A DNA stretch of 64,000 bases, taken from contig JAIORP010000206.1 of NCBI GenBank assembly GCA_021108075.1, forward strand, positions 831-64,830, in the 5' to 3' direction. The position numbers and the translations under genes were made by a program. Positions 1 through 64,000 of the stretch are shown piece after piece; position 1 is the first letter of the stretch, and every line of letters begins with the position of its first letter. Below the pieces are notes generated by a model that searched no databases, had not been told where the DNA came from, and was given only the letters and a program-made list of their open reading frames with translations. Origin of the DNA: Candidatus Omnitrophota bacterium. Lineage in GTDB: Bacteria > Omnitrophota > Gorgyraeia > Zapsychrales > Zapsychraceae.

Positions 1-1400
1 GCCTTACCCTTGAGCAGGCGAACAACACTCAGCACACCTTCGGTTAATTTCAGACGGTCATTGTGCATAAACAGGCGTTGGTATTTTCTTGAATAGCCCG
101 TATGATCCCAGTAATCTTTCGGATACGTTCTTAAGGCGGCTGGAACAGATGTGTGGGTCGCGAAAACCAGACGTGTGCCTTCAAAGTAAGGATTTTCTAA
201 CACGGCCGGTGCGGTTAATGATGTGGCGGCTTCGTTTAAGTGCAAGACATCCGGTTTAATGTTCAAGCCCTTCATCACAGCGGCGGTGCCTTTACCCAAT
301 AACAATTCTTGCAGGAAGCGGTCCCATTCACCGGTTTCGGCATAAATTTCATCGGTAATGATTTCATTCACGTCTTCGATATAAATGACGGTTGCCCGGC
401 CGCCCTGACCAGAATCAAACACCTGGCGCCATGCCTGCACCTGCATCATCATCATGCGGCGGCTTGGGCCGACAGGCATTAAGATGTTAAACATCCGGGC
501 TTCACCTGTCTCGTCATCAACAATCAATTCAATGTTCTCGACATTGTTTTGGTAATCAGCGACATACCGCTCTCTTCGATATTGTCCGTCTTCACCTTTA
601 ACCGGTTTGCGTCCGTGGCGATATTTCAGCGTGAAGAACAGCATGTCCGCGCCTGGCAGGTCAGTCGCGCCGTAAACCGTGTCAGCCGCCAGCTTCCCTA
701 ATCCTCCGGCGAAAACGGAACCGGGGATCGCGATCTCACTGCTGACATAGGTCACGACCTTTCCGGCCATTTGATGAACGACTCTGCTGACCCAGCTGCG
801 GGCTTTAACCGGCATACGTGGTAATACCGCACCGACCTTGACGGTCTTCACTCCGGTCCTTCGGCGTAATTTCAAGTCTTCTACTAAGGCTTTAAAGACC
901 ATTTTAAATTTCTCGTAACTGACTGGTGTTTCTCCTTCAAATCGTGGTTGAATTTGATTAAACCATGATCTTAATTCCTCAACATGCGGGTAAGGTTTCA
1001 AAATCGTATTAACATAAGCGATGAAATCACCAATATGATGTCTGATAGATTCATCCATATCATCCTGCGTCTGATCATAGAAATATTTCAGGCCGGCTGC
1101 CTTGGCGTTCACGCGGTCATATTCATGGCCATCTTGATCAAGCAAGGCAAAACTGAACGGACCAACACTGTCTGTCGTGTAGAGCAAACTGAAAACCTGC
1201 TGGTCGCTTAAACCAGCAGCAAATATTTTCGCCTTTTCTTTACCCTTTCTGACGTCCTCGACCAACTCACTAAGCGACAGTGAATAGTCCCGACCGAACC
1301 GCGTTGCCTGTTGCTGTTGCGCTTCATCCAATGCATCTATCGGTGTCGCCTTAAAGGACGTGCCTGATAAGATGGAAGATTTAAAGGTCACATCGGCTAG
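1..1400 (-). other. GT35 alpha-glucan (glycogen/maltodextrin) phosphorylase-like domain; N-terminal part, continues beyond the window start.
   Basis: Translated at + ~590-725: EIAIPGSVFAGGLGKLAADTVYGATDLPGADMLFFTLKYRHG, the GGLG(R/V)LA(A/G)(C/D) ... DLG(L)P ... YRxGYF signature of GT35 phosphorylases. Translated at + ~135-257: KPDVLHLNEAATSLTAPAVLE and LVFATHTSVPAALRTYP, cf. (I/Q)HLN(E/D)(G/T)H and T(N/T)HT(P/V)(V/L)P(A/E) of the family. Confidence 0.6.
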
Positions 1401-4400
1401 CATATCAACATCATTATTTGTTCGGCTGAGGAAACGGTATTCCATCAAACGGTTTTCATCATGGCTTTGATTATTGATTTCATGGATAAAGATACGCGTG
1501 AAGCGTAACATTTGTTCGAAATCGGAAAGTTCCTGGACCCGGTTTAAGAAGGCGCGTTCCATATAGACGATGCGTTCTTGATCTGATTCCAGGTAGGTCG
1601 CCCCGAAAGTAATTCGGTCTGCTTCAATAACAAGTACTTTCACAGGAGGGCCACGTGTCAAATTGTCGCGATAAACGGATAAAAATTTAATGGCCCATCC
1701 CAGGTGATCTTTCATGCGTTCTGTTTCGTCATTGACTTTCAGACGACCATCATGAACAGCCGATAAATATTGCTTTAACTGCGCCTCTTCTTTGACTTCA
1801 TCTTCGCCGAGATAACCGGTATCGTTACGGCCCTTGTCGTCATCCTTCCTGTTCCGCTCCTGCCGTTTCTGTTTCCAAATCTGGACCAATGCGAATGTGG
1901 TCATATTTTCGATCACGCGTAAAATTGGGAAGGCCAATTCACCTTCTCTGTCTCTTTTATGATAGAAGGATTCATCATCCGTCGGACCTTTTTGTTTCTC
2001 AATAATCTCTTTAATGGCCAGGCGGATTAAGACATACGTAACATATCCGGCCCTTGATGGATTTTGCTTAACATAAATTGTGACATTGCTGTTAACAGCC
2101 GTATTGATTTCCTCAAATCTTTGACTGGATTTTAATATCTCTAACCCGGCTAATTTCCTGATCTTAGCCTTAGACGTGCGCTTTAATGTCCCTGTGATTT
2201 GATACGTATCGTCCTGGCCTTCTACGTTTCTGATCATATCTAAAATTATCAAGGCCCGGAGCGTCGCAGCTTCAAAACGGCCAGCCGCCATAACTTCCAC
2301 GCTTAATGTTTCTTGTTCAGCTTTTAATGTCTTAAGAACATCCGCAATGGAACCGCTCAGATCAATTTGAACGACTGGCTCGTCCTCTTCAACTATCGGT
2401 GTTTCCTCAACTACAACTTCCGGGTCAGCCGCGCTTTCTTCTGATTCTTCCTGTTTATCATCTTCCGTTTTTGTTTCTTCTATTTGCGGATTCAAGAAAC
2501 TTTGTGTTAAGCAATACCATGCCCAGCCAGCCTCTTCAACCTGCGAATCTAATTCCAGGACTTTCAAGCGGACCAATTCAGCCAATGTGTCCTTATCAAA
2601 AAACATGCCGTCGATGACGCTGCTCTCAAAAAGATCCAGTCTGGACCGCAGTTCCGCCATGACCTCCTGGACAGAACCGCTTAAACGAATGTCGCGTCTG
2701 GTCGCGCCAAAGATCATTTCGATCTCGCTGCCGTTTTTCAATGTGATTCTGTGGCTGTAGAAAAATTTTCTTGTATCTTTAATCGCAGCGCCACCTCTAT
2801 CACTCAATCCTTTAATCAAGTGGCTGACCAATTCATGATAAAGGATCTGCACCTGCGTGTCCGCTCTCAGGGCGAAGAAATAGGTATGCAGCACAACACG
2901 CTTTTGTGTTCCAGCGATCTGATAAGAAGCGACCTGACCGTCTGTTTCACGCTCATCCGTGGTAATGATGAACACAACGTTGTTCAATAATCGATTCAAT
3001 TGTTCGGCCAATGCCTGACCGTAAAGATCACCTAGCTTGACCTCATAGAACGGTGGTCCGCGTCGCTGTATTTCTTCGAACAAGTCTTTCAATCTTAATA
3101 AAAAGATGCTGTCTTGTTCTTTAGCCAAAGCATCCCCGCCCACAGAAGCTATGGTCTGATCTTGAAGGGTAAAGACGGTTCTTTGCGGTGTCTCAATGTT
3201 TTCATGGAAGGCCTGCGGAATAGCCAATGGATAATTCTTCGAATCTTTTTGTTGTTCATCCAACGCTGAGTATTCACCTTCTTGCGCGGTTACACCCAAT
3301 TGAGCGAGATATATCTCATCATTGACCGTCTCAGCTGTTACCCGATCAACCCTATCCTCAATGTTAAAGGCATTAAGAACCAAGCGGGCATATTCTTTTT
3401 TCTGTTCAAGCGAGGCAGTGGCCAGCAGCATTTGTTTAAAGATATCTCGTGCTTGTTGAAGGATTTCTTTTGGACCGACTTTCCCGTGATGGGTCTCTAA
3501 CCATGACATCCATTGTGCCTTCGCGAACAAAAGATTTGTCGCATGCCTTCTATTTTCATCCCAAATTCGAGCCTGCGCTAAAACGGATTCAAGCGAATAT
3601 GTTCCCGGGTCTTCTCCCCTCGGCCTGACGGCATTTCCGAGATAGTTCAGGAATGCGTCGGTTGGTTGAATGTATCCTCTGGCCAATAAATCATCAATGA
3701 GCCGAGGATCAAAGCCGCGCCTGTCAATAGACAGCACGCCAGCGTCTTCAACAGCAAAAAATTGCCTGATCGTTGGATCAATGAGATAAACACGTTGACT
3801 GCCTGTCAGGCGGATCATTAAGAAACTATGAGGGTATGATCTGAAAGAATAGATATCCTGCGTATAGACGTCAAAAATTTCAATGCGGCCTTTTGTTATT
3901 TTGTAAATGTTCGCGCGGATCTGATCTTTAGCGCCGCCACAGCATCCGGAAAGCTGTGCACCGGAGAAATACAGCCGTTGCTCCTGATATTGATGGTCTG
4001 TATTAAACTCTTCGGCCGTTGAACGTGCATACTGGAGGTGTTCCTCTTGCCATTGGGCGATGGCCTGTTGAATGACAATTTCGAGGTCTCGTTCTGTTAC
4101 CGGTTCTCCCCTTAAGAAGCGGCCTCGCGCGCCTTCGAATTTGTCTTGATCCGGTTGAACAAATTGAGGCATCGGTCCTTCTTTTTGCATATCAGCTAAT
4201 AACTGCGTTTCCTTCCGTGAGAGCGTTTCTGTTTCCATACTTTCGGCCTCCGCGAAAGCGTATGCTTCAGGAACGGCCTGTCTGTTTTGCGGCTTTGCTC
4301 CCCAAATCCCTCGGATAGCTTCCTTTTCCGGAACACGTAAGCGCCGGAAGTACCCAGAAGGCATCTCCATAAACATGTCAAACCAATAAATAGCGATTGA

Positions 4401-7400
4401 ATAGTCCTGAGGTCTTTGAATGTGCAGCCGTTCTAAGAGCATGGCGCTACCATGGTCAATCAGGTATAACCGGCCGGTTCGAACATCCACGCCCCAATTA
4501 TGCGCCCGAGATAAATCTCTGTAGTAAATGCCTCTGGATATTAATTCAAGGATGATATCGTGCGCCTGGGCGTCCGTAAAGACTTCACCGTATCCGGGAA
4601 CCACTAACCTGTTTGGTAAATCCGTGTATTCATTTTTGACATACACTTTAGGACGGACAACAATGAACGCTTGATTCTGAACGTTTCCATCGACGCGCAC
4701 ATCGATGTCGAATAACACACTAAACGGCAATAGAATTCCGCCCATGGTTTGTTTAATAAAATTCAGCTCTTTAATATATTTGTCTTTCTCATCCACGTAT
4801 TTCGCCCTGAGCAGGCCGATCTCATATGGGACGCTTTGATCTCGGGCCGCATAATATGTGAAGCTGCCGCCTTGACGGCCGATCTGCTCCCAATCATCCC
4901 TCGCCATAACAAAATCTTTTAAGCTCATTAAACCGTCTTTATCTGTTTTCAATGCGGAGGCAATGTCCATTATGCCTGTTCTCAGATAAGCCAGTAACCG
5001 GCTATCCGGCATCGACCCGTCCGCTGCAGGGATGCTTTCTAAATATTGCTGTTCCATCCGGCGGTTTTCTTGATGTGAACGATTGTTCAGCTCATGAATA
5101 AAGATGCGGATATAAAGCCGTTCTTGTTCTTTGGCGTCTAAAGATTGAACGCGCGTCAGGAATCCTTCTTCGATGTAGATGATGCGTTGCCGTGCTGTTT
5201 CAAAATATGTCGCGCCGAACGTGACCGTATCGGTTTTAATAACCTGGACCTGGACCGGCGGGGCGCGTGTCATTTGAGGTTGACGCGCTGATAAAAATTT
5301 CTCAGCCACAGAAAGGTACCGAATATATTCTTCCGTTTCATCGGCAATAACGATCCGGCCCACAGCAGCTTCAACTTTATATCGACGCAATTGTTCTTTT
5401 TCTGCCGCAGGGTTCTCTTCTAAATATCCGCCATCACCTTTCACATCACAGGCAGCGCCATCGACAGCTTGAATGCGGTTCAGTTCGGCAACCATATCTT
5501 TGGCCCAGGAATAGACGTAAACATCTAACGTCGGTAGTTGTGGATTATCAGCTAACCCGAGGTTAAGGGCCTGACTATCGATCAGGATATGAATGTTGAC
5601 CTTGAAGTGTTCCGCCAGAGCTTTCATCTCTCCCTTGAACGCCGGGCTCGATAATGTTGCGAGTTTAGCAAAAACGGTGAGTTGATGACCTTTTTCTTTT
5701 TCCTGCTCTTCATGTTTAAAAATCCATTCTAATGGGAGATACATCGCAGCCCATTGATAATCCGGCGATTCACTTAAAGCCTGCATGCTGAACTCGATCT
5801 TACGTTTGATACACCAATCCAAATGACCACCAGTAACAATGAGACGTCGGCCTCTGGCCAGGTCAACCTTCCAGGTCTTGGAACGGTTGATGGTAATACC
5901 GCTGACTTGTTTCTTAAGATGTTTGTACATGTCTTTGAGCGGAACAATACTGAAGAATTGAACCACAGGTATTTCTTGTTCCACCGCTTTAGTTTGCAGA
6001 GCGGCGATTTGTGCCTTAAGGTTTTCCGCGATTTCTTCAAAATATTCCATCAGATCCATCGCATCCGCGCGTTTATCTTTGTATGTAATGTACTCTTCAA
6101 AGTCCGGCATTCTGTTTTCAAGTTTGGCGCGCAAATCAGCGTTTAAGAAATCCGTCATGTAGAAAATCTTTTGGTCGAGCATTTCCATCATACGCTTTTC
6201 ATTGCCGAATTGATTTCTTAACGCCTTGGCTTGCGTCTCGGTCGCGATCAGGATAATATCCGCCTGCTCGATCATGGACACATAAACCGGTTTCATGTAA
6301 TGCACCCTGAAGTAAAAACTGCGTAAGCGGTTAACCAGCATCGGATCATCCGCTGTTTTAATAAATCTCAGCACCTCTCGAACATCTTCATCCCATCGGT
6401 CCCTTGCGTCCAGGAACTTCGCTTTGCGCAGTGTCGAGCTGGTACCCGCGGATACCGCTGCCACATCATCCAGATCGCCTTTCAAGACCATCTCAAGCAT
6501 TGGGCTGCGGTTGCGGTTGGCATTGCATAAGCAAAGAATATTCTCAACTTTGCTGATACCTCTCTTTCGAAGCTTTGATTCTTTATTATTCGGCGAAGAC
6601 ATAACCATACCGACGATGGACATACCCGCTAAGGCCATCCAATGATACAGATCTAGGCTGTCTGGAGTGACCGTTTCCAATCCGGTTGCCGCATAGAGCG
6701 TTGTCGGCATCAATAAGATCATAACGACGAAGACCTTCTTCAGCGCGGAACAGACAGCGTTCATCACTTTCAGGAGCTTATTACGCGTTGAAACATCTCT
6801 GGAAACCTCTTTGTCCTGAACATTTCCGATGATTGTTTGCGCTTGCTCGAATGCGTTCATTTCTTCACTGATGTCGACGTCATCGGTCCATCCTGTTAAG
6901 GCACGTATTTCTCCATCCACAAATTGTATCATTCGCGCGTAAAAATCGATCCAGTACTGTCGGTTCGCCTCTAACAGTTCTGGAACATCCTGTCTCATGA
7001 ATAAATTCCGTTTTCTCGTCTCAAGTTTCCTTAACTTTAACATTAATGCTTCCAGCTGTTCTGCCTTTTCGTCCGCATGCGTTTGAAGCAATTCTGACAT
7101 CTGCCTTTCATCCCAATCTGTTTTATTCAAGATGCGTTCAACGATTTTTTCTGTTAAAGTGTGTACTTTGTTATACCGATCTGATTCCCGTAAGACATAC
7201 TCGATCAACTCATGCAATAATATGTCTTCAACGGATTTCTTATTGATCCAGGACCATTCAATGTACAGGACATAAATATCATTTTCTTTAAGGAGGATCG
7301 CTCCAAAAAGCGGTCGGGTCGAATGGGTGTTGACCATGTGCACGGCATCAATAAAACGGTTATTACTCATCGGCGGGCCTGTCTCCAATCCTTGCTTAGC

Positions 7401-55400: not shown

Positions 55401-58400
55401 TGTTGTCTTGTCGTGATCCAGATTAAATGCTTTCTGGACGTCTTCTTGATAGGCTTTGCTCAATTCTTTGAATAAGAACTCAATAACATTCGCCCGGCTA
55501 TATTGATTCAATGCGAGTAAAGCCTCCTTTTGGTATTCTGGAAGCCCGTCCATAAACACGACAACAGCTTGTTCTTTTAACCGGCTGACTTCTTCTTCTT
55601 TCGCGCTAACGCGTGCCTTCAAGTGTTGAACGTCTAATTGTAACCATGCCTTGAGTTGCGCGCCCTTTGTTTCGCCTTCAACTTCAACAGATCTTAATTC
55701 TCGCTCCCGCTTTGTCAATAATGTTTTAATCGCCTGCATTTCTTTGTCCCGCTTATACGCCAAAAGAAGGATGCTTTCATCAACAACATCCGCATATACC
55801 TGCGTCCATGTCTTGATAATACCGGCTTTAATTTTCTCTTCCCGTTCCTTTAATACTTGACCAATGAGATCATAAAGATTTAATAAGTGTCGGTCACGGA
55901 CGACTTTAAACATAAAGATAGCCAGGTTATCCTTGGCGACTGCCGGATCAGGATTCTTGTTTCCTAAAAGCTTCAATTTCATTTGCTTCAGGATCTCAGC
56001 ACTCTTATCCTGTTCTGTTTTAAAAGAATCTTTTCTTTCAACGATATCCTTTCTAAGATCTTCAAACATGGTTTTAATGGAATTAATTTTCACTAAGAAG
56101 CGCGCCAGGCGCATTCCTTTAAGATCAAAGCTCCTATCTATTAAACGTTCTGTTGTCCCTGTTCTTGAGTAGGAATGATCCATCGCGTCACGCAATTCAG
56201 ATGGCAATGTCTCGCGCATTTTTTCCGCACTCGTAATGCCGCGATCTATAATTTCTTGAACGGCTCCGGTCAACATGTCCTCAATAATTGCGCGAATATT
56301 TCCTTCACGGACAGACTTGATTTTCTCGAACAAAAATCGTCTTAAGGCTGCTTCATTTTTAAATCGGTACAGGTAACGGATCGATCTGTTTATATCTCTT
56401 AAGCGTGGGTCGGCTAATTGATTCATAAGATCTTGAGCGCCTTCATCCGCGATGGCTTGCATTTTAGTTTCAACATCTTCTAATGCTTTTTCCTCAGGAA
56501 GAGTTTGATAATAAGCGAACAATCGATTCGCTTCCGGTGTGGCTTCTTCTAATAAATCCGCCATGCGTCGGGCGATGTCTTCATCTTTCACGTCATCTTT
56601 TTCCTTTAAGATATCCCGGTATTTTTCCAACGCGTTATATTGGCCGCTTAAATCATCAATGATATCCATGCCATCAGCCATCTTGGCATAAACATTCAAG
56701 TCTCCGCTCACTGTCTTCAGGACAAGGTATTCGGTTAATCGTTTAATCGCTTCATGCTCATCATTATCGGCGATAAATAAAAGCGCGGATTTCATGCCTT
56801 CCGGAATATTCGACCAAACGGCATTAACTAACTTATTGATCTTACGCTGACCGAGGATCGCGACAACTTTATCTGTCGTTATTGGCGCTCTGTCATCCTT
56901 GTCGGTATCATTGTTAACAGCGTTATTGTCATGGCTATTATCATTATCATCTTCGTCCTTGTTTTTGTTCAATACCCTGCGAGCTTGGACCCTTAATGTC
57001 ACGATCGCTTTTTCACTGACAATCGGCTTGTCGAACGAATTATTTTGTGAACTGTATCGGACAATTGTTTCATAAATGTTATCGGATAAGACATCTTCGC
57101 GTTGAGCTTTATAAATATTATGGATCTGCATATAAAGCTCACGGTAAAGAATCCGGTCGATACGGCTGAAGATATATCGATACAGGTCACTGCGTTGGAT
57201 AAATCCTTCATCCATCTCCACGAAGGCGGATTGAACGACACCATTGACATCAATGACATTGTCTTTAACCATCTGAGCGAATGTCAGAGATACTTCATCA
57301 GCCTCCATTCCAAGGACTTCATGAATTTCATCGGCGGTCAGCACAACTTGTGAGACATTCATGATTCTTAAGGCTTGAAGCTGATCAACCGATAACAACT
57401 GCACAATCTCAGACATCCATGGCGTTAATGCCAGATGCAGGGCTGTCTTCGCATTCTTCAGGTTGATATTTATTCTGTCGATTTCAGCGTTAACTTCAAA
57501 TTCTTGTTCTTCATAGATGCGGAGATCTTCTTTCTCTTTTAATAAATTCACGCGTTGTTTTTGCAGGTTGATAACGAGTTGTAAGATCTTGCGTTCCTGG
57601 TCTGATAATAAGACATCCTCCACCTCTTGTTGAGCTGTTAGAATCGCCAATTTTTCTTTTACAGCATCCGGCAAGCTTGCTTCGTAGGCAGCAATCTTAG
57701 CTTCAAGATCCAATAAGGCCTGTTCGAGATCAAGGACTTTATCCTTTGACGCTTGAATATCTGTCAATTGTTCTTTTAACCTGTTGTGATCCTCTAAAAT
57801 CCTTAAATACTCCTGCCATTCGGTTGAAACATCTGTGCGCATATCGTCTATATGACGTTTCACATTAGCCAGAACTTCTTTCTCTTTCTCAGCATCGTGA
57901 CGCTTAATATCAACAGAAATCTTTTGATCCAAGAGGCGATCGATCACATATTTCATCCAGTCCTTCTCCGCTGTTTCTTCAAGGGCTTTAAGATCATCGT
58001 TTAATAACTTAACTTCCTCTTTTTCATCTTTCGTTTTCGCTTTTAGTGCTTTTTGTGAGTGTTGCGTCTTCAACCAAATCATTTCTTCTCTTTCCGCCCG
58101 TTTGGCCATCGGCGCGTGTGTAGCAACATATTCCTTGGCATCTCTATAGTTCCTTAATAATTCTTCAGCCTCACCGAATGAGATGGAAACTGTTCCTTCG
58201 TGATCCATGACTTTAACGAGGCCGCCATCGCTTAATCGGATGTATTGACCGACACGGCCGCGGGTGATATTGACCTCGCTGTCGGTTTTGGTTTCCTCTC
58301 CTTCGTGATCCATGACTTTAACGAGGCCGCGGGTGATATTGACCTCGCTGCCAGCTTTGGTTTCCTCCGTATGCTTGATGCCTGTGATGTATCCACCGAA

Positions 58401-61400
58401 GAATGTGCCGAAGACAATCATGGCGAGGTTGGCCAGGACCATTGATCCGATAAAGACAATACCGCTTAATGGCGAGAAGAGGACTAAGCCCATATTCACC
58501 AGCAACATCAAGAAGAAGTAACGGGTATTGTGCTTGTAATCGATGGTTGCCATACCGACTAAGAAACGCAATGTGAACAGGATGCTGTAAATGCTGAACA
58601 ACAGGATGCCCGCATAGATGTTGAAGTTGATGACCGCGAAGCCAACGATGATAGCCGCGGTAATCATGAAGACGAGGCTAACAAACAATCTGGTATGCAT
58701 CCATGGATATTTCACACGGTTCTTTTGAACTTTCATTCTCAAGGCTAAGCCGGTATAGAAGAGTGAATGACCGAACCAGGATTGGATGTAGCGGTCAAAG
58801 ACTTGCCAGAAGTAATCCAATGTTTGCGCGATTCTTAACGGTAACATGGTGAACACTCGTTTCATGCTGAAGTTAATGATGATATCCCGTTTAACGTTTT
58901 GACCGAAAATCTTCTTGGCTCGGTCAGGATTAACGTTGAAACCGAAAATGTTCTTGATGATGATCACCGCTTTAGCGAAGACATATATGAAGCCTGAAAG
59001 TTTGCCATTGCCTTTTTCGATGTCATCCTTCGTGAACGCGCCGTAAGTATCGTTACCTGTCAACATTGATATCGACGCGGTCAGGTATAAGATCAATGTG
59101 AGGAATCCAATAAAGTCCATAACACCAAAGGCAACCGCTATGCCGAAGATACCGAGAATACCGACAATGCCCGGTAATGGGAAGCCTCCTCTGTTGCGTT
59201 TACCCTTAAAGAATAACGATGTTTCTTTGTAACGCGTGATATTATCCCACATCTGCATCAAAGCGTCCTTATTCGTACGCAAGAACTCAAATTTTTCACC
59301 GGCGGCCAGGATCGTACCAATAGCAAAGTTGGAGATCAACTTAACGTAGAACGGCAGGCCGTAATAGATGTCTTTTAACAATAGTCCGAGGCCGACCCAG
59401 AAGTTACCTTCCTGTCTCCAGTGACGCAAAAGGTTGCTGAAGTTGATGGCCTTCATTAAGAAGATACTGAAGAAGGCAAAGAGCATATAAGGCGCCAAGA
59501 ATGACAGGCCGCTGAAGGCCGTTAATAATGGGAAGGTCACTAATGCTAATAATGCGTTCGGTGACAGGATGTAGTGGAAGTGCATAAACAAGTGAGAAAG
59601 CTTTTGATCGAAGCCGACTTCTTTGTTGTAGAAAACAGCGTGCTGACTGTTATCCATGATCAGGCGGACAACGTTGTAAGCATAACGTGTTTCTGTACCG
59701 ACTAATGATTCAGCTAATAAGTTTGGACGGCCCCATTCAAAACCATACCAATCAATATGCGTTGATACATAACGCGGCTGCGTGCGTTGATGCATCAAGT
59801 ACGCGGCTGAGTCTTCCCCTGGCGGTGTATAAACAGTCGTAAATGTATGGTAGAGTCCAAGACCTTTTCCATAGAACGTTGTATATTCTTTACGGCCACG
59901 TTGAACTTCGCTCGTCCATGATTCAACGGAGATCGCGTATGTCTTGGCACCTTTCCAGGTATCCGTGCTTGCGGCCCAGACGCGCATCATCGGATTGACA
60001 ACAGCAATGTGTGAATTACGCGCCTGTAATGTTGCCCATGCCGGACGCCAGACATTTTGACCAATGGAGGTGCGGACGTGGGCGTCGTAGTTGATCGATT
60101 TATCGAAGAAGAGCCATAAGTTGGTGGCCATACCACCATTCTTATTGTTCATGATCAGAACATCCTGCGTCACGTCATAGAGGGCAAAGCGGACGTCGTT
60201 CTTGTCTAAGGTTACAAGGTATTGCGCAATCTGGTCCGTGTCATCCCATCGCAGTCTGACTTCCTTGGCATCCTTGGTTAATCCGTGTTGTTGCGCGAAC
60301 AGGATAACCTTAATAATTTTTTGTTTACCTGTTAAACGTTCGCCTTCGACCAGAGAATTATGGTCAGACTCCCATTGACGTGCCCATTGCTTAATATCCA
60401 TGCCAGCGTATTTCGCTTTATCAACAGATTCAAATGCTAAAATCTGGTCAATGTAGCGGACGATTTCTTTGGCGGTTGGGTCTGTCTTGAATCGGCTTTC
60501 TTCTCTTAAGGCCACGCGGATCTTGCCTAATACTTTCTTACCGTCTTCGAGCTTACCTAAGTTTTTAATGGTCTTATCAGCCTCAAACGCGTTTGTGCGC
60601 CATATTGGTTCCATGTGAAGAATGTTGCGGACCTTGGAGTTAACAACTGCTTTGTACTCAGGATATTTCTTTATAAAGGTGTCCTGGACTAACTTCACTG
60701 TGTCTTCTACGTTTCCGATTTCTTGCGCTAATTTTTCATACGCTTCAGCCTGCATTTCCGGTGTTTCTTCGAGGAAGAATTTATAGGCCTCTTCGAGTGA
60801 AACAAACCGGCGGCTGACAATTATGGCCCGTGCGATACGGTTAAATTTATAATCACCCAGTTCTTTGGCGAGCATCAGGAAGTATTCAAACTTGTCGGTT
60901 GACATGGACTCGGCAACCGGACCGTGTGTTGGGCGTTGTTCATTTAAGAATCGTAACGCGATTTCTTCAACCCTTTCTTTTTCTTCGTTCGTGATACCTT
61001 CCGTGAAATAGAAGTCTTCAACAATTTGATCATCTTCTGTCACATTTCTTAATTTATCCAAGAAACCCTGGACATCCGAACTTTTTCTTCGTTCTGCCGT
61101 GAAGACCTCTTCAATTTGTTCCATCGCGTTCGCCCATTCGGTATCTTTATGGCGGTTGGCGTTATAACCGAAGAGTGTTGTCTCTGCACCCGTACCCTTA
61201 TTCTTGTCGAAGATGCCTTTGAACATGGAGTTGAAGACCGTGTTACTAAAAATTTCCCAGGCGGCCTGTGTATGTGACGATGTTGCTTCAATTAAAGCGA
61301 TCACATCCGTTGTTGGTTTTCTCTGGCTGAGGCCGAAGAAGACGTCATAAAGAACTTCCTGGCCCTTGACACTGTGTTGTGGTTTAACGAACTCACCACC

Positions 61401-64000
61401 AACTTCATTACGTAATGCTTTAATCCATTTGGCTTTTTCTTCATTTGACAACAGGGATTGTTGATGCATACGTTCGATGGTGCGGACCAGGTATTCCCGG
61501 ACGGTTTCACCGTTTTCAATTAATGGACCATATCGTGTTTCAATTTCATCAAATTCGTCAACCCAATTGCTGTATTGTTTCTTCCAGTAATCCGCGCGCG
61601 TGCGTGGTGACAGGGCGATAATCATGGCACCAACAGCGATCAACGCGCCAAGCGTCATGACTGGAATGCCGGCGATCATGCCGAGGATCGATACAACAAC
61701 TGAACTCAATGTCAGGCCAAGGATCACGTTAATGCCAAGGCTCAATCCTTTCAGGGCTTTAGCTGCTTTGAGGCTTGTCGCTTTCTTAACAAACTCATTT
61801 TCGATGTAATTGGCCACGGCGCCTTGAACCATAAACACAGCCGGAACAATGACGACTAAGAACAACGGTAGGCCGCTGAGCCAGATGAGCGTGGCGAAGA
61901 TGACGGAAACAAATCCGGCTGAAACCTTACGGTTAATATTAAACGGATTGAATGATTGTAAGCCTGTTAATGAGCGGGCGTTCTTGCTCCAGAGATCTTT
62001 GTGCATTTCATAATAACTTTGCATGGCGACGAACAAATGATAGAAAGCGACCAATGTCGGCAATGCGGTTACGAGTATGAGATACGCGGTGATTCCAAAG
62101 CCCCAGGTCAAGCTGATTAAGGCGAGCTTGTTGAACAGAAGGTCAACCATAATACCGCCATAGTAGACCGTCGTCACACCAAAAATTCCGATCCACCAGA
62201 GTTTCTGTGATAACTTCTTGGCTTTACCCATGATCATTGGGACGAGGAAGAACAGCAAGCTGACGCTGACAGACTTAAGCGCTAATGGAATAAATTCGGT
62301 CATGCCTGTGGCTGCCTGGATGCCGACAAAAATAAGGACAAGCGCCGGGAGAATCAAGCCGAAGAATCGGTATGTCCAGCGATGCAAGACTGTGTCTTTG
62401 ATGCCCCAGAACTTCTTCCAGTTAAAGAACAATTTAAGGAGATATGAACCGAATAAGAATCCGATACCTGACTTGACTTTGCTCTTTTCTGCGAGGTCGA
62501 CCACTTCTTCATGATAATGGCGCATCAAGTCGTCTGTGACGTCTTTGAGCTTCGCGTATATCTTTGCTAACTGTTCTGTCTTTTCCGCGTCTAAGGCCTT
62601 GACGATATCATCTTGTTGATGGTTAGAAATGACCTTCTTAAGATCTTCCGTAAACTTCTTACGAAGCTTTGCGTCAGAAATGTGTTCAGCGATATCGCCG
62701 TAAACATAGTCGCGTAACTTGATGATCAATTGACGTTCATCCTGAACTTCGCGTCTGCTGAACGTAAATCCGCCAAAGTTAACCACATCATCGCCTGTGC
62801 CTTCAACCTGTTCGGCCGCTTTCAAGAACAATTCGAGTAAATTCGTCGGTCTGGCTTTCCGTCCGCGTCCTTCTAATTGCATAAACTCGAACAAGTCATA
62901 CTGGCTTTGATCAATCCAGTAATTGGAAATGCGATCTTTCAGCTTGCCTGAATCCCACGCCTTGCGGAACTCTGTACGCGTTCGGAAGCGGAAGCGCTCG
63001 TAAATGTTGGTAAAGCGCATTAACTCGTTATAAGCCTTGATGTATTCTTTAAACTGACCTGGTGTTAATCTGTCCTTTTGATTCTTAGCTAATTCACGTC
63101 GCAATTCTTTAGAGACATATATGATAAACGGTAAGATTAAATTTGTACCGCCGATCGTGACACCGTTTGTTTGAGATTGGTTCATTTCCAACAACTTGAA
63201 GATGACATTTTCTCTTAAGGTGTTAACTTCTCCGCTTGGTTGCATTGGATAAGCGTTGTAGATGATATCATTGTCGAATCCAAGCAAGCCTTCAAGGATA
63301 CGCGGGTTAGCATAAATGCTGCGATGGATGACACCAAATGATGTGTCGAGCAATGATTCGCGGTCAGAATCGACGTCTGTCGTTACATCCTTGAATTCAA
63401 TGCCGATACCTTCAAGAATTTGTTTGTAAACCGGTCTAAAGATTTTTTCTCTGAGCAAGCCCTGGACAAATGGATAGAGGCTTGTATAAGCGACTTTCTC
63501 TGTCTCTGTTTGTGCTTCCTGTGATTCAGCAAATTTTTTCGTTTCTAATTCCGTGCGATATGGTTGATCCGCGGAGATGTCTTTCGTTTTCTCAATGAGT
63601 TCCGATAATGTTGGAATACCCGTAACGTGACCCTTCTGGCTCAATTCAATAATTTTTCTTAAGACAACCACTTGAGGTGTTGGTAATAAATCATCTAATT
63701 GTTCAATAATCTCAGCGGCTGACATCTTGTCGCCGTCTTCTTGCAGGGTCGTCAAGAACTTGCTTTCGCTGAAGTTCAAAAGATATTTCTTTATACCGGA
63801 CCAGACAATCGCATGCTTAATCGTTGATTCACCCAGGTTATAGTTGACCAGTGTTTCTTCAAGGGCCTCTTTAATATCTGCGGCTTTAATCGAACCTCGT
63901 CTCAAGAGCTCGGCGATGACGACAACATCCGGATGTGTCTCTGTATCTAGTCCGCGAATAAAGGCATCCATGCCTTGCTCCGTCAGGGTTTTAATCGCTT
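1..64000 (-). CDS. Giant multidomain membrane-associated protein, internal fragment of a single ORF longer than 64 kb; partial at both ends.
   Basis: The minus frame with codon starts at + positions divisible by 3 has no stop in about 20 hand-translated stretches (408-1022, 9060-9359, 12541-12660, 16128-16260, 20161-20260, 20631-20819, 21234-21650, 28141-28260, 29041-29100, 29881-29960, 31348-31554, 34143-34150, 34741-34860, 35881-35985, 36600-36722, 38034-38170, 41100-41360, 48240-48419, 51297-51341, 55261-55380, 58381-58500, 60001-60300, 61601-61780, 63901-63998). The ORF track lists no minus-strand ORF in this frame anywhere. Nearly all listed minus ORFs have start mod 3 = 2, and two (36340, 38977) have start mod 3 = 1. 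If this frame contained a stop, an ORF of 60 aa or more ending at it would be listed, so the frame is open for all 21,333 codons. Confidence 0.88.
8900..9400 (-). other. Calcineurin-like metallophosphoesterase domain (PrpE/ApaH-like Ser/Thr phosphatase or diadenosine-tetraphosphatase type).
   Basis: Hand translation of 9060-9359 gives VTLQDLHGGFRRAAALIGHSLGLGPDIYRRIHTLDDLKMALDLAGIDIHSKDIRFVGLNDKYDRGNDPRGLFNLVKWLRDTGKAKVFAGNHD. The three canonical motifs D-x-H-G, G(N)D-x-x-DRG and GNH(D/E) occur in the correct order and spacing. Confidence 0.7.
12300..12800 (-). other. Class I SAM-dependent methyltransferase motif I region (PrmA-like).
   Basis: Translation of 12541-12660 gives HMMNDNLKDMDIVDLGAGDGILSLAAFKLGAGHVDLIEL, cf. 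PrmA VLDVGCGSGILAIAAAKLGA-xV-x-DID. Only motif I was checked. Confidence 0.5.
16000..17300 (-). other. GT-B fold glycosyltransferase-like region (GT4-like E-x7-E motif).
   Basis: Translation of 16128-16260 gives AKIGNRGMVLYTSSWEGWGNAWLEAVYHKVPILVYKY, resembling the GT4 C-terminal p-S-x-x-E-G-F-G-x-x-x-L-E-A-m ... P-v-i motif. Extent of the domain not verified. Confidence 0.4.
18850..19000 (-). other. Transmembrane segment(s).
   Basis: Antisense + ORF composition and fast translation give AGSVTIAMAYLTVLADNPVVAGIISIVLIVAVVWGI. Not re-derived codon by codon. Confidence 0.4.
20050..20330 (-). repeat. Copy C (diverged) of an internal protein module with signature RAGPL-x-GFLAT ... EGTEYI ... IAAS(V/L)IHEIGAVS.
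   Basis: Translation of 20161-20260 gives AMINAGHVRAGPLKGFLATVCAHEGTEYIVLSN, collinear with the copies at 21.3 and 23.2 kb. Confidence 0.6.
20550..21200 (-). other. Protein-kinase-like fold domain (Kdo/RIO/APH-type catalytic loop), possibly atypical or pseudokinase.
   Basis: Hand translation of 20631-20819 gives NSSWVRFFIENEEELVRKIGDAYRRLNHDLGIIHGDVKVEHLFITREKKIYIIDFSTGPAEQPR. It shows a catalytic-loop HGD-x-x-x-x-(N to H) followed by a (I/L)IDF(G to S) DFG-like motif. Confidence 0.5.
21279..21650 (-). repeat. Copy A of the RAGPL...HEIGAVS module; near-identical at nucleotide level to 23169-23540.
   Basis: Hand translation of 21234-21650 gives DLARRHPDLPEPGKEQRDAAVEALNWDTDFISIDQYVDIASMEVVLETALRVAGEEEMAVRLRGMLAARQVRAGPLAGFLATIYEKDGTEYILISTAYAEYVTELQIAASVIHEIGAVSEFNLTDEENEA. 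It has about 3 mismatches over 372 nt versus copy B, at an offset of 1890 nt (630 codons, in frame). Confidence 0.85.
22730..22960 (-). other. Transmembrane helix pair.
   Basis: Fast translation gives FAMLGIGAVLFGITNVAQAQDVNAIAQSGAVIEISSLVWTMAGAIVGAIVIGIGGYLLSRRY, consistent with the Ala/Val/Ile-rich antisense ORF 22619..22819. Not re-derived codon by codon. Confidence 0.45.
23169..23540 (-). repeat. Copy B of the RAGPL...HEIGAVS module (about 99% nt identity to 21279-21650).
   Basis: Direct nucleotide comparison of rows 23161-23550 with 21271-21660. The + strand shadow ORFs 21127..21336 and 22996..23226 share the SVRLNSLTAPISWI(T/K)LAAI tail. Confidence 0.85.
23700..24650 (-). repeat. Two diverged copies of an unassigned module of about 190 aa with signature T-(V/I)-I-I-(L)TGG-x-x-x-DCL-x-x-x-Y-(E/Q)-V ... 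IFE ... D-(M/L)-x-IVL.
   Basis: Hand translation of 23730-23890 gives MNTVIITGGMSYDCLAGIYEVLLKIIFEMGVDMKIVLLEQAMNGREEREVAAQY. Hand translation of 24481-24630 gives VEDGIKTIILTGGVCDDCLLSLYQVIVYYIFENNADLHIVLPVKAIWGSD. No family was recognised. Confidence 0.5.
27950..29150 (-). other. Sugar-1-phosphate nucleotidyltransferase-like domain with C-terminal left-handed beta-helix (GlgC / ADP-glucose pyrophosphorylase-like architecture).
   Basis: Translation of 29041-29100 gives NSVSVGAMLPGSGTRMSPL, the G-x-G-T-R-(L/M)-x-P-L-T NTP-transferase motif. Translation of 28141-28260 gives EDVQPDQFGNRLVNSDVPQDGSIRNSTIINTTIYGKNDIEGAVIIDSTLAAAKIARGSVV, hexapeptide-repeat (LbH) character. The order is N-terminal NTP-transferase then LbH, as in GlgC. 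Confidence 0.6.
29880..30000 (-). other. HIT-like histidine triad motif (H-x-H-x-H-x-x), adjacent and N-terminal to the nucleotidyltransferase-like domain.
   Basis: Translation of 29881-29960 gives LTFNSLAAGASIHDLHLHGMYLPEDKSP. Motif only; fold not verified. Confidence 0.35.
31226..32430 (-). repeat. 100%-identical core of tandem unit A (pairs with 32747-33951).
   Basis: Direct nucleotide comparison. Identity starts at atattacccatgtaaccgacagcc and ends at cggcctgtattcat in both units; flanks drop to about 70-75% identity. Confidence 0.8.
32747..33951 (-). repeat. 100%-identical core of tandem unit B (pairs with 31226-32430).
   Basis: As above. Confidence 0.8.
34700..36050 (-). other. GT4-family glycosyltransferase domain, TreT-like (trehalose glycosyltransferring synthase-like).
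   Basis: Translation of 35881-35985 gives IFDINSTAQGGGVALMLHAFQRLIRFALGLDA, cf. TreT NST-x-x-GGGVAE-x-L. Translation of 34741-34860 gives VSESIDKGVPVIAYNVGGIGRQIQHGETGYLVN, cf. TreT GGI-x-x-QI-x-DGETG(F/Y)LV. The upstream segment contains EGYEIKVSE (E-x7-E). Confidence 0.65.
36590..36780 (-). other. Transmembrane hairpin with conserved loop motif.
   Basis: Hand translation of 36600-36722 gives ASTVKAAGTAQTATMVTAATAAPWISVTIVAGVVITVVAII. A hydrophobic stretch (LFSILLVMLTLT by fast translation) precedes it. Confidence 0.6.
37750..38990 (-). other. GT4-family glycosyltransferase (group 1) domain.
   Basis: Hand translation of 38034-38170 gives AMSLEGIFILPGVIPHKYVAEAVSMMDIFTLPSISEGQGLSMLEAM, with a canonical E-x7-E (EGQGLSMLE), followed by VAEKAIVASHVGGIPETL. 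Fast translation of the N-terminal part (~38.9 kb) gives VLHLIGSFSRGGAEKMALDL, cf. GT4 N-terminal ilh-x-x-sl-x-x-GGaE. Confidence 0.7.
39120..39520 (-). other. Two transmembrane hairpins carrying the same AAGTAQT...AAPW loop motif.
   Basis: Fast translation gives IALGVIASITQEAETAQTAVMVTTATAAPWITIAVTAGIVIALAALVVFLV and LAALMIVIPAIVKAAGTAQTTMVTAAATPWLTISTVIAIAPYFVLAGLGIL. These are the antisense images of shadow ORF 38920..39504 (AAAVTIVVCAVPAAL...). Confidence 0.5.
39900..41450 (-). other. GH13-family domain with closest resemblance to sucrose phosphorylase (GH13_18-like N-terminal signature).
   Basis: Hand translation of 41100-41360 gives LNFFLHALGKVGQPFTILHILPRLFPYSVDEGFGTKDHTRVDAKQGDWAMVEKIVREHDMKLMLDFIVGHIASDHPWFTAFLNNVEE. 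Compare sucrose phosphorylase LH(L/I)LPFFPS-x-GD-x-GF-x-x-x-D-x-x-x-VD-x-x-x-GDW ... (Y)LM-x-DF-x-x-NH-x-S, and the GH13 region I HTSD(E/Q)HPWF. The C-terminal extent to ~39.9 kb is not verified. Confidence 0.6.
41640..42110 (-). other. Cluster of about 4 transmembrane helices, again containing the T-A-x-T-A-x-M-V-A-T-A-P-W motif.
   Basis: Fast translation gives IIGALMMLPVKSFGAGMNQTLSVVTTTAAVQWFSIVIVAAMIIGVIVAGVSLWVVL ... ILMLIPTSVDFAGTASTAVMVATAPWAVVGAVTLISAAAVIFSAWFV. Antisense of shadow ORF 41539..42006. Confidence 0.5.
48250..48420 (-). other. HExxH zinc-metallopeptidase-like motif (HELGH), family unassigned.
   Basis: Hand translation of 48240-48419 gives IRRGQQSYSSVDRTIAMPAVMDIHMSHELGHHVAHILGLYDPFNVMGNIFESIWFMRDDT. 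Confidence 0.45.
48600..48760 (-). other. Transmembrane helices.
   Basis: Fast translation gives FASGFALIAVANVMGVNIAPIVVAILAIAGLGLVLTAVVGAVNMV. Antisense of shadow ORF 48607..48846. Confidence 0.4.
49740..49950 (-). other. Transmembrane helices.
   Basis: Fast translation gives IVTLVTAGLLYRVFGAEYIAGVLAANPALTAIAATLFAVGGLLAVVIGI. Antisense of shadow ORF 49735..49929. Confidence 0.4.
50400..51500 (-). other. Second protein-kinase-like region (APH / ABC1-UbiB / ePK-like catalytic loop).
   Basis: Hand translation of 51297-51341 plus flank gives RQQLKILRKAHIARDMNFGNLKFDEQGNILAAFDWD, with D-x-x-x-x-N after an H-x-(A)RD catalytic-loop-like motif and then a D(W)D metal-binding-like motif. Domain boundaries not verified. 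Confidence 0.4.
54000..58100 (-). other. Long highly charged (E/K/R/Q/L-rich) predicted coiled-coil region.
   Basis: Hand translation of 55261-55380 gives LDGVWELFREARYDIAQLQAEIDQVELRIAIEEENVKAA. The + strand here is dominated by ttc/ttt/ctc/ctt triplets, the antisense of gaa/aaa/gag/aag, and shadow ORFs 54202.., 54493.., 55651.. and 55933.. are Ser/Leu-rich. Confidence 0.45.
58195..58368 (-). repeat. Short in-frame direct repeat: a 105-nt unit followed by a 69-nt copy lacking an internal 36-nt segment.
   Basis: ccttcgtgatccatgactttaacgaggccgc occurs at 58195 and 58300, and gggtgatattgacctcgctg-n-c-n-g-n-tttggtttcctc occurs at 58262 and 58329. The encoded peptide repeat is GLVKVMDHEGEETK-x-x-SEVNITRG. 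Confidence 0.7.
58380..59650 (-). other. Polytopic membrane region (multiple TM helices).
   Basis: Hand translation of 58381-58500 gives VNMGLVLFSPLSGIVFIGSMVLANLAMIVFGTFFGGYITG. Fast translation upstream gives further helices (FVSLVFMITAAIIVGFAVINFNIYAGILLFSIYSILFTLRFLVGMATI). Confidence 0.5.
61600..62480 (-). other. Second polytopic membrane region.
   Basis: Hand translation of 61601-61780 gives TSLKAAKALKGLSLGINVILGLTLSSVVVSILGMIAGIPVMTLGALIAVGAMIIALSPR. Shadow ORFs 61600..61809 and 62218..62514 are antisense images of hydrophobic codons. Confidence 0.5.

Follow-up and report, generated by a model that had tools for sequence, protein, structure and literature searches.

A 64-kb window of Candidatus Omnitrophota DNA lies inside one giant gene that very probably encodes a multi-enzyme membrane protein

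The window analysed here, a stretch of 64,000 nucleotides from the Candidatus Omnitrophota assembly GCA_021108075.1 (contig JAIORP010000206.1, forward-strand positions 831 to 64,830), is filled by a single open reading frame (ORF) of 21,332 codons on the minus strand (positions 3-63998), which is open at both window ends. All features described below lie on this strand. Amino acid (aa) 1 stands at the window's 3' end on the plus strand and residue i is encoded by plus-strand positions 63996-3(i-1) to 63998-3(i-1); in the following, residue numbers are given first and window positions second. Read from plus-strand position 63998, the frame contains no stop in 21,332 codons under translation tables 11, 4 and 25, and alternative genetic codes are irrelevant, as TAA, TAG and TGA are all absent in frame. 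The remaining five frames carry 938-1,696 stops each (table 11), and their stop-free runs reach 194 aa at most. From base composition, about 1,241 stops would be expected in the giant frame, the log10 probability of finding none being -555. An earlier note on this DNA had described the whole window as one uninterrupted minus-strand frame, had considered codes 4 and 25 unnecessary and had taken the listed short ORFs for shadows of this frame, and the counts bear out all of this. Its view that both gene ends lie outside also holds: neither a start nor a stop codon of the giant gene falls within the window, whose bases 1-2 and 63999-64000 are partial codons. Only its codon coordinates need amending, because it is the lowest plus-strand base of each codon that is divisible by 3, whereas the codon's first (5', minus-strand) base leaves a remainder of 2.

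Codon position 1 of the giant frame is the most G-rich position in 64 of 64 consecutive 1-kb windows, and thus the coding phase is unbroken throughout the window. The GC content ranges from 41 to 48%, relative synonymous codon usage (RSCU) correlates at 0.69-0.94 among eight segments and tetranucleotide composition at 0.81-0.91; this segment comparison across the window gave no sign of a junction between unrelated sequences. Rfam families, tRNAs, tandem repeats (Tandem Repeats Finder) and phage similarity were all absent from the window. A measure of selection came from the TreT-like module described below, the one module with a close relative, which was compared with its homologue on an independent contig from a Candidatus Omnitrophota metagenome-assembled genome (MAG), here called L001. 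Over 737 aligned codons pN was 0.16 and pS 0.70, giving a dN/dS of about 0.09 with dS near saturation, so that selection acts at the protein level. Altogether, the absence of stops, the constant periodicity, the homogeneous composition and the purifying selection confirm that the window is an internal fragment of one larger, genuine giant gene. That this gene is of the Omnitrophota type and encodes a multi-enzyme membrane protein is a conclusion we hold with high confidence. The composition of the product is ordinary for a globular and membrane protein, with the exception of Cys, which is strongly depleted across the whole ORF (36 of 21,332 residues, 0.17%).

As marker genes are lacking in the window, its placement comes from relatives of its parts. 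In a scan of 185,579 species genomes (one genome each) only one locus was matched, namely L001, a contig of 5.8 kb that is itself one open frame and shows 72.9% aa identity to aa 9116-9856 (741 aa). An exhaustive HMMER search with aa 700-1899 retrieved 85 relatives among 1.84 billion cluster representatives, nearly all of them within proteins or fragments of 1-7.6 thousand amino acids (kAA). Organism names are attached to nine of these, namely seven from Ca. Omnitrophota and one each from Ca. Eisenbacteria and Endomicrobium. A word-index homologue search with aa 1-2000 had come back empty, which in view of these 85 relatives is not evidence for an orphan protein. Two metagenome scans with aa 1-1000 and aa 20333-21332 as queries returned no relatives. 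The support for an Omnitrophota origin is therefore indirect, but good, and the pointer to this phylum in the earlier note is borne out by L001 and by the named homologues of the N-terminal module.

Giant genes of this kind have a published context. Of 116 Velamenicoccia species genomes, 77 contain ORFs above 20 kb (PMC10066038), so that the description of such genes as extremely rare is right for prokaryotes overall but not for Omnitrophota. The giant ORF of V. archaeovorus LiM encodes 39,678 aa with 42 predicted transmembrane (TM) helices (PMC10066038), and 46 Omnitrophota genes exceed 90 kb, reaching 85,804 aa (West-Roberts et al. 2023, 10.1101/2023.11.21.568195). A survey of 3,650 proteins of at least 10 kAA, the longest with 147,155 aa, found 94% to be membrane-targeted and defined a class of 'multi-enzyme metabolic clusters' in which sugar metabolism and kinases are central (Nielsen & Lui 2026, 10.64898/2026.06.07.730766). 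Another giant ORF of more than 21 kAA is consequently no longer news in Omnitrophota, where the class is described and common. Calling these proteins mostly uncharacterised is outdated for their architecture and still correct for their function, which two preprints and a Nature Microbiology paper leave at 'adhesion/lysis?' or 'multi-enzyme?'.

The window starts inside a conserved unit common to long Omnitrophota proteins (aa 1-1900, 58299-63998), as delimited by the HMMER relatives. Within this unit, aa 1240-1720 (58839-60281) are predicted to form a BcsA-like, membrane-integrated processive glycosyltransferase module with a GT-A core, an interface helix and TM helices, marked by the motifs NYD1305AH, PGE1395D1396, T1435ExRY1439 and F1572xxTxK1577. 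Residues ~1244-1684 are the best-conserved part of the 85-member family and carry the invariant motifs NKNGG, NYDAH, FYGKG, PPGED, EWGRP, TExRY, KLSH..HY and FxxTxK, which are followed by TM helices. An AlphaFold2 (AF2) model of aa 1240-1720, built on an alignment of 20 sequences, reached a predicted TM-score (pTM) of 0.72 and a predicted local distance difference test (pLDDT) score of 70.5. In this predicted model the GT-A catalytic domain is packed against a TM channel, which is the fold by which BcsA-like enzymes are recognised, and Foldseek matched it with a probability of 1.00 to BcsA, Chs, HAS, CesA, Cgs and Fks.

The candidate catalytic residues D1305, E1395-D1396, T1435-E-x-R-Y1439 and F1572-x-x-T-x-K1577 follow each other in BcsA-like order, with spacings of 91/40/137 residues. 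In the model, ED lies at the N-terminus of a helix and TExRY inside a long helix, which can be likened to the positions of TED at the tip of the finger helix and of QxxRW in the interface helix of BcsA. The catalytic base within the TED motif of BcsA is Asp343. Counted with this residue, the spacings in BcsA from Asp246 (second UDP-binding residue) through TED and Q379RGRW to the FxVTxK gating loop are ~97/36/~124 (PMC8892547). From order, spacing and secondary structure we infer that ED, TExRY and FxxTxK are the counterparts of the BcsA motifs.

Judged by its predicted fold, the module is thus BcsA-like while being a member of no described sequence family. Its likeness to BcsA, hyaluronan and chitin synthases, plant CesA and Fks1 lies in the predicted fold, and none was seen by Pfam or by a profile search of PDB sequences. 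It differs from BcsA-type enzymes in its variant motifs (PGED, TExRY, FxxTxK), in having no PilZ domain and in forming part of a polypeptide longer than 21,000 aa. A GT48 Fks-type glucan synthase, which was our first guess from the motifs, was discarded, since the profile search of PDB sequences backed no family and BcsA, HAS and CesA outrank Fks in the fold searches. Neither West-Roberts 2023 nor Nielsen & Lui 2026 mentions a cellulose-, glucan- or chitin-synthase-like or processive module; in the case of West-Roberts 2023, where a BcsA-like module is likewise not mentioned, TM regions were left out of the structure predictions. Upstream of the module, between two TM clusters, lies a conserved, mostly helical soluble domain (aa 801-1239, helical to ~1270; 60282-61598, from ~60189) that was modelled with a pLDDT of mostly 75-92 over model residues 12-480; aa 801-1270 gave no significant PDB match.

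Further along the polypeptide, the recognisable domains are largely sugar enzymes and kinases; altogether, matches to Pfam and to PDB sequences account for about 15% of the protein. An APH-type phosphotransferase (kinase) is found at aa 4071-4276 (51171-51788; PF01636, 42 bits against a cut-off of 23.2) with RD....N and FDWD motifs. A GH13 domain at aa ~7521-8014 (39957-41438) resembles sucrose/glucosylglycerol phosphorylases and amylosucrases (PDB 7xdq, E 8e-28) and keeps the triad of nucleophile Asp, acid/base Glu and third Asp, its RVDA, LPEI and HDG aligning to RLDA, LPEV and HDG. It is followed by a GT4 glycosyltransferase at aa 8343-8727 (37818-38972; Glycos_transf_1 PF00534, 117.8 bits; Glyco_transf_4 PF13439, 45.6 bits) and by a TreT-like retaining glycosyltransferase of the trehalose synthase family at aa 9326-9756 (34731-36023; PDB 2x6q, E 9e-33; 73% identity to L001). 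A Kdo/WaaP-RIO-type kinase with IIDFS and the catalytic loop HGD lies at aa 14350-14463 (20610-20951; PF06293, 28.4 bits, cut-off 21.3). From their retained motifs, GH13 and both kinase domains are probably active. Close to the end of the window, aa ~21020-21305 (84-941) weakly resemble starch synthase (GT5) and alpha-glucan phosphorylase (PF08323, 21.1 bits against a cut-off of 22.7; PDB 9l6i, E 1.5e-4). Searches of PDB sequences by phmmer with aa 1-5000 and aa 14401-19400 gave no matches.

Between these domains lie membrane segments and long stretches that have no annotation. Kyte-Doolittle hydropathy and uncharged stretches mark about 40-45 hydrophobic helices, arranged as two multi-helix clusters and at least 11 hairpins. 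Cluster A (~8 helices; aa 545-798, 61605-62366) precedes the synthase-like module, and cluster B (~8 helices; aa 1467-1874, 58377-59600), supported also by the AF2 model, overlaps with it in part. GH13 is preceded and followed by four-helix anchors of two hairpins each, at aa 7305-7461 (41616-42086) and aa 8164-8307 (39078-39509), which are paralogous by self-comparison; the former has loops without Lys/Arg and basic flanks, and the latter the loop motif AGTAQT..MVTAA.APW. A further hairpin at aa 9080-9141 (36576-36761) was called from hydropathy, motif and the charge of loop and flanks. Helix counts are even beside GH13, GT4 and TreT. An Ala/Thr-rich loop motif, AAGTAQTxxMVTAATAAPW, is near-identical in four hairpins (aa 7425-7461, 8184-8220, 8265-8307 and 9098-9141; 36576-41726), where it immediately precedes the second helix. 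These four hairpins look like a reusable membrane-anchor cassette placed between enzyme modules.

The hairpins carry information on topology. Across the 11 hairpins, loop lengths range from 1 to 23 aa and all loops together contain 2 Lys/Arg, against an average of ~4.5 Lys/Arg in the 20-residue flanks. By the positive-inside rule, these basic flanks and Lys/Arg-poor loops place the long soluble segments in the cytoplasm and the short loops alone outside. The enzymes point in the same direction. GT4 and TreT enzymes use nucleoside diphosphate (NDP)-sugars, APH and Kdo kinases use ATP, and phosphorylase-type GH13 enzymes use phosphate, all of which are cytoplasmic co-substrates. Because of this need and of the charge pattern of the hairpins, the bulk of this part of the protein probably faces the cytoplasm, with attachments to the inner membrane at intervals of a few hundred to a few thousand residues. 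This placement agrees with the 'TM-only, cytoplasmic-domain' reading of Nielsen & Lui.

Relatives of the window parts offer insight into how such a gene may have been assembled. Residues ~3-25 of the window align to residue ~2,600-4,440 of six long homologues (P0009, P0013, P0022, P0024, P0027 and P0031). These end 500-900 aa past the module, whereas the window frame runs at least 19,400 aa past it. Four of them (P0013, P0024, P0027, P0031) begin with Met and read as complete, the N-terminus of P0027 and P0031 being signal-peptide-like. By analogy, the giant gene itself probably starts ~8-13 kb (~2.6-4.4 kAA) upstream of the window, and this upstream part would encode an exported, beta-rich region with a signal peptide.

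In the Omnitrophota genome GCA_022072175.1 (1.59-Mb contig JAJVIE010000003.1) the unit exists as a separate 2,544-aa gene (protein MCG3176731.1) in which the synthase-like module is joined to a hexokinase. The GTG with which this gene starts overlaps the TGA that ends an upstream gene of at least 3,434 aa (GTGA; positions 9961-10040 of locus L006), so that one point change in this stop codon, or a small indel close by that restores the frame, could fuse the two. Other homologues continue past the module into hexokinase, GT5, GT1 or phosphoribosyltransferase (PRTase) domains, and homologues of the TreT-like module also stand alone, at ~1,200 aa and in ordinary gene neighbourhoods. In L001, the sequence upstream of the TreT-like module (1-3440) resembles aa 19518-19652 and 20769-20859 of the window and not the region upstream of aa 9116; module order thus differs between relatives that are 73% identical in the module they share. 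Taken together, the split synthase/hexokinase gene, the free-standing TreT homologues, the varied downstream domains and the order in L001 suggest that giant genes appear to grow by fusing coupled neighbour genes through stop-codon loss, with shuffling of modules.

Also matching the TreT region (aa 9151-9858) is an ENA contig (ZHAN22-2 scaffold_16776; L004 2500-4585), which was split by gene callers into three consecutive same-strand genes. It shows a frame switch near 4270, which reflects either a frameshift from sequencing within a further giant gene or a true border between genes.

In terms of published classes, the protein fits the enzyme- and TM-rich one, which is already documented as 'Archaeovorin-type' (West-Roberts 2023) and as 'multi-enzyme metabolic cluster' (Nielsen & Lui 2026). 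The distinct Pfam families above cut-off are APH, Alpha-amylase, Glyco_transf_4, Glycos_transf_1 in two copies, TreT_GT1 and Kdo/RIO1, with a maximum copy number of 2 and none dominant. As in the multi-enzyme class, many distinct Pfam families tile the polypeptide, and its sugar-metabolism content agrees (GT1, starch-synthase-like, kinases); the protein is predicted to be anchored in the inner membrane, and its sequence is nearly unique, like most of the Nielsen & Lui clusters, of which 80% are singletons. Differences are that the window is only a fragment and that TreT-like, GH13 phosphorylase-like and BcsA-like modules are not named in the text of Nielsen & Lui.

With the Archaeovorin-type giants, whose type is the 39,678-aa protein of V. 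archaeovorus LiM, the window shares its affinity to Omnitrophota, one ORF spanning tens of kb, numerous TM helices, GT1/GT4 (possibly GT5) and glycoside-hydrolase-family domains scattered in mostly unannotated, poorly conserved sequence, and the lack of dockerin and TSP3 repeats. It departs from the type in that HEAT, a divergent SecA_DEAD and an N-terminal C39 domain are undetected in aa 1-21332, although some may lie outside the window. Of the methyltransferase, NUDIX and peptidase domains, which also may lie outside, the window gave only a PrmA/MTS match that stays below threshold (20.6 bits, cut-off 22); no NUDIX or peptidase family appeared in it at E <= 0.5 in Pfam. A Dockerin type has also been described, with many dockerin, EF-hand and TSP3 repeats (West-Roberts 2023), whereas the window shows no such Pfam matches and few internal repeats.

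Altogether, our preferred reading is that the window is a piece (21,332 aa or more) of a giant Omnitrophota gene whose product works as a membrane-tethered cytoplasmic glycan factory. We consider this joint reading somewhat better supported than its negation, while the glycan-factory function, taken alone, comes close to an even chance without quite attaining it. The product would be a polytopic inner-membrane protein in which cytoplasmic enzyme modules are tethered beside a processive synthase. The phosphorylase-type GH13, the kinases (with hexokinase in relatives), GT4, TreT and GT5 would interconvert and activate glucose-type sugars, and the BcsA-like module would polymerise a glycan and thread it through its own channel to the cell surface. 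There the extruded glycan might serve as a coat or attachment matrix for a host-associated lifestyle. The nearest precedent for such a mechanism is the cyclic beta-1,2-glucan synthase Cgs/ChvB (PDB 8rf0, 8rf9), a fusion of ~2,800 aa that joins a processive glycosyltransferase, TM helices and a glucan phosphorylase. In contrast to the window, Cgs has about one tenth of the fragment size, a defined order of GT84 then GH94, and a known product and chemistry, and beyond the fold there is no detectable sequence homology between them. Genes for pilZ and carbohydrate transporters (importers) adjoin giant genes (West-Roberts 2023, 10.1101/2023.11.21.568195), and PilZ is the regulator domain of BcsA (PMC8892547). 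Such neighbours would fit a BcsA-like, possibly cyclic di-GMP (c-di-GMP)-controlled system, with no PilZ in the window itself.

Several observations weigh against this interpretation. Some 85% of the polypeptide is without any match in Pfam or among PDB sequences, and the sugar enzymes that can be recognised may hence not be typical of the whole. The basis of the synthase assignment is a model of medium confidence (pLDDT 70.5) and a 20-sequence alignment; a longer model (aa 790-1880, 12 sequences) was confident in the helical domain only and failed to reproduce the core confidently. Pfam gave no GT2 (Glycos_transf_2), Cellulose_synt, Chitin_synth or Glucan_synthase match at E <= 0.5, and a profile of 20 homologues found no match among PDB sequences. 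The proposed equivalence of the motifs was drawn from their order and spacing, the QxxRW counterpart is a variant TExRY, and the first UDP-binding Asp was not located. The topology was read from hydropathy and the positive-inside rule only, with uncertain helix counts in the two large clusters. PilZ, SecA_DEAD, C39, HEAT and NUDIX were not found in the window, and published work proposes mostly extracellular domains and lytic or adhesive roles for Archaeovorins (West-Roberts 2023; PMC10066038).

A generalisation may nevertheless be put forward, tentatively. Enzyme-rich Omnitrophota giants as a group could be cytoplasm-facing glycan factories, not extracellular lytic weapons, built round a hitherto unrecognised, mostly Omnitrophota family of BcsA-like processive synthases; the conserved unit (aa ~500-1900) would extrude the polymer, the residues fused to it would supply or tailor the sugar, and the size would have arisen by successive stop-codon loss. 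If this were true, the giant proteins of these ultra-small episymbionts would be scaffolds that channel metabolites to a surface-polymer synthase. Three handles turn 'function unknown' into a testable hypothesis. The first is a module of ~1,400 aa, conserved and expressible, that combines a predicted cellulose-synthase-like fold with invariant candidate catalytic residues. The second is the topology rule of Lys/Arg-free hairpin loops and basic flanks, which predicts cytoplasmic enzymes, counter to published extracellular predictions. The third is that relatives carry these modules as separate genes with coupled translation, which suggests how giant genes assemble.

The published role of Archaeovorins is the explanation that competes best with the cytoplasmic glycan factory. 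According to it, the protein is a surface-exposed giant whose extracellular enzyme domains bind and break down the cell wall or the surface polysaccharides of prey or host cells. A role in attachment and lysis was proposed by Kizina et al. (as cited in PMC10066038) and by West-Roberts 2023, who predict mostly extracellular domains and cell-wall degradation for this type, and the giant protein of V. archaeovorus is 3-fold up in attached cells. In the present case, relatives of the first unit begin with signal peptides and long beta-rich N-terminal regions, so that the part upstream of the window may be extracellular, and GH13 is formally a glycoside hydrolase family. However, the identifiable domains in the window need NDP-sugar, ATP or phosphate, the Lys/Arg-poor hairpin loops of 1-23 aa have basic flanks, and the anchors have even helix counts. 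Pfam scans found no lytic transglycosylase, peptidase, lectin, dockerin or adhesin repeat in the window, and some of the predicted localisations are called unreliable by West-Roberts themselves (10.1101/2023.11.21.568195). For the enzymes of the window, which we place in the cytoplasm, this role therefore seems unlikely; it may still hold for the unseen N-terminal part.

Another possibility is a polyprotein, that is, an ORF translated once and cut into many membrane-anchored enzymes, its size being a device for packaging or stoichiometry. The occurrence of the modules as separate genes in relatives would suit this idea, as would the peptidase domains of types C39 and S8 in full-length giants (West-Roberts 2023). 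A candidate processing element is a recurrent domain of ~85 aa, present in six copies at aa 9958-10039, 10465-10546, 10970-11051, 19575-19656, 20311-20418 and 20780-20861 (e.g. 33882-34127, 1416-1661), as well as in L001 and, in three copies, in the homologue P0010. It follows the pattern (A/G)PP ... beta strands ... IY..F ... [FY]HE....(H/E), and its copies are located near the N-terminal ends of repeated or shuffled units. From this HE motif, a metallo-hydrolase or processing domain is a possibility. Against the polyprotein speak the lack of a match of this domain to any Pfam family, of a detected protease domain in the window and of an identified conserved cleavage motif. We judge cleavage to be quite improbable, and it would be compatible with the glycan factory, not exclusive of it.

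An artefact of assembly or polishing, by which separate, shorter genes were joined, frame-corrected or duplicated, has to be weighed together with the internal repeats. Self-comparison showed mostly unique sequence with few local duplications. The main one consists of three tandem units of ~507 aa (aa 9907-11077, 30768-34280), two of which share an exact direct repeat of 1,196 nt with a period of 1,521 nt (31225-32420 = 32746-33941; aa 10527-10925 and 10020-10418), the third unit being only 44-53% identical. This exact repeat reflects either an in-frame duplication of very recent date or a duplication made in assembly, and published giant-gene assemblies needed curation in both directions (West-Roberts 2023). 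Yet the repeat is in frame and affects the length by merely 507 aa, no assembler removes ~1,240 expected stops, one frame is periodic throughout with uniform composition, and the independent MAG contig L001 is likewise fully open over the homologous region. An artefact as the source of the giant frame is accordingly very improbable.

Outside Omnitrophota, adhesin/RTX-type repeat proteins and nonribosomal peptide synthetase/polyketide synthase (NRPS/PKS) megasynthases are the commonest bacterial protein classes above 10 kAA. Although they are the usual explanations for very long bacterial ORFs, there is next to no chance that either applies here, as self-comparison gave few local duplications, Tandem Repeats Finder gave nothing and Pfam scans of the window were without dockerin, TSP3, adhesin-repeat, Ig, cadherin, VCBS, RTX, condensation, adenylation, KS and ACP domains. 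With giant adhesins and repeat proteins, such as the ~36,800-aa ORF of Chlorobium chlorochromatii and the Dockerin-type Omnitrophota giants, the window shares extreme ORF length in a host-associated bacterium; those proteins have many tandem binding repeats and are largely extracellular, whereas the window is essentially non-repetitive, enzyme-bearing and repeatedly membrane-anchored.

Some weaker features complete the picture. A DUF218-like match at aa ~3585-3655 (53034-53246) stays below its cut-off (24.1 against 27.6 bits), and the region is 40% identical to the homologue P0053. Sub-threshold matches of 19.4-20.6 bits to HATPase_c (aa 16636-16720) and to a PrmA-like S-adenosylmethionine (SAM) methyltransferase (aa 17110-17171) fall within 12486-14093, and further sub-threshold matches concern HD, RelA/SpoT and SidJ. 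In the last case, aa 12581-12805 (25584-26258) weakly match, at an E of 3e-3 and below the safe threshold, the Legionella protein SidJ, a pseudokinase-fold glutamylase. Finally, self-comparison marked three related units at aa 13485-14661 (20016-23546), two of which are 96.6% identical over 116 aa.

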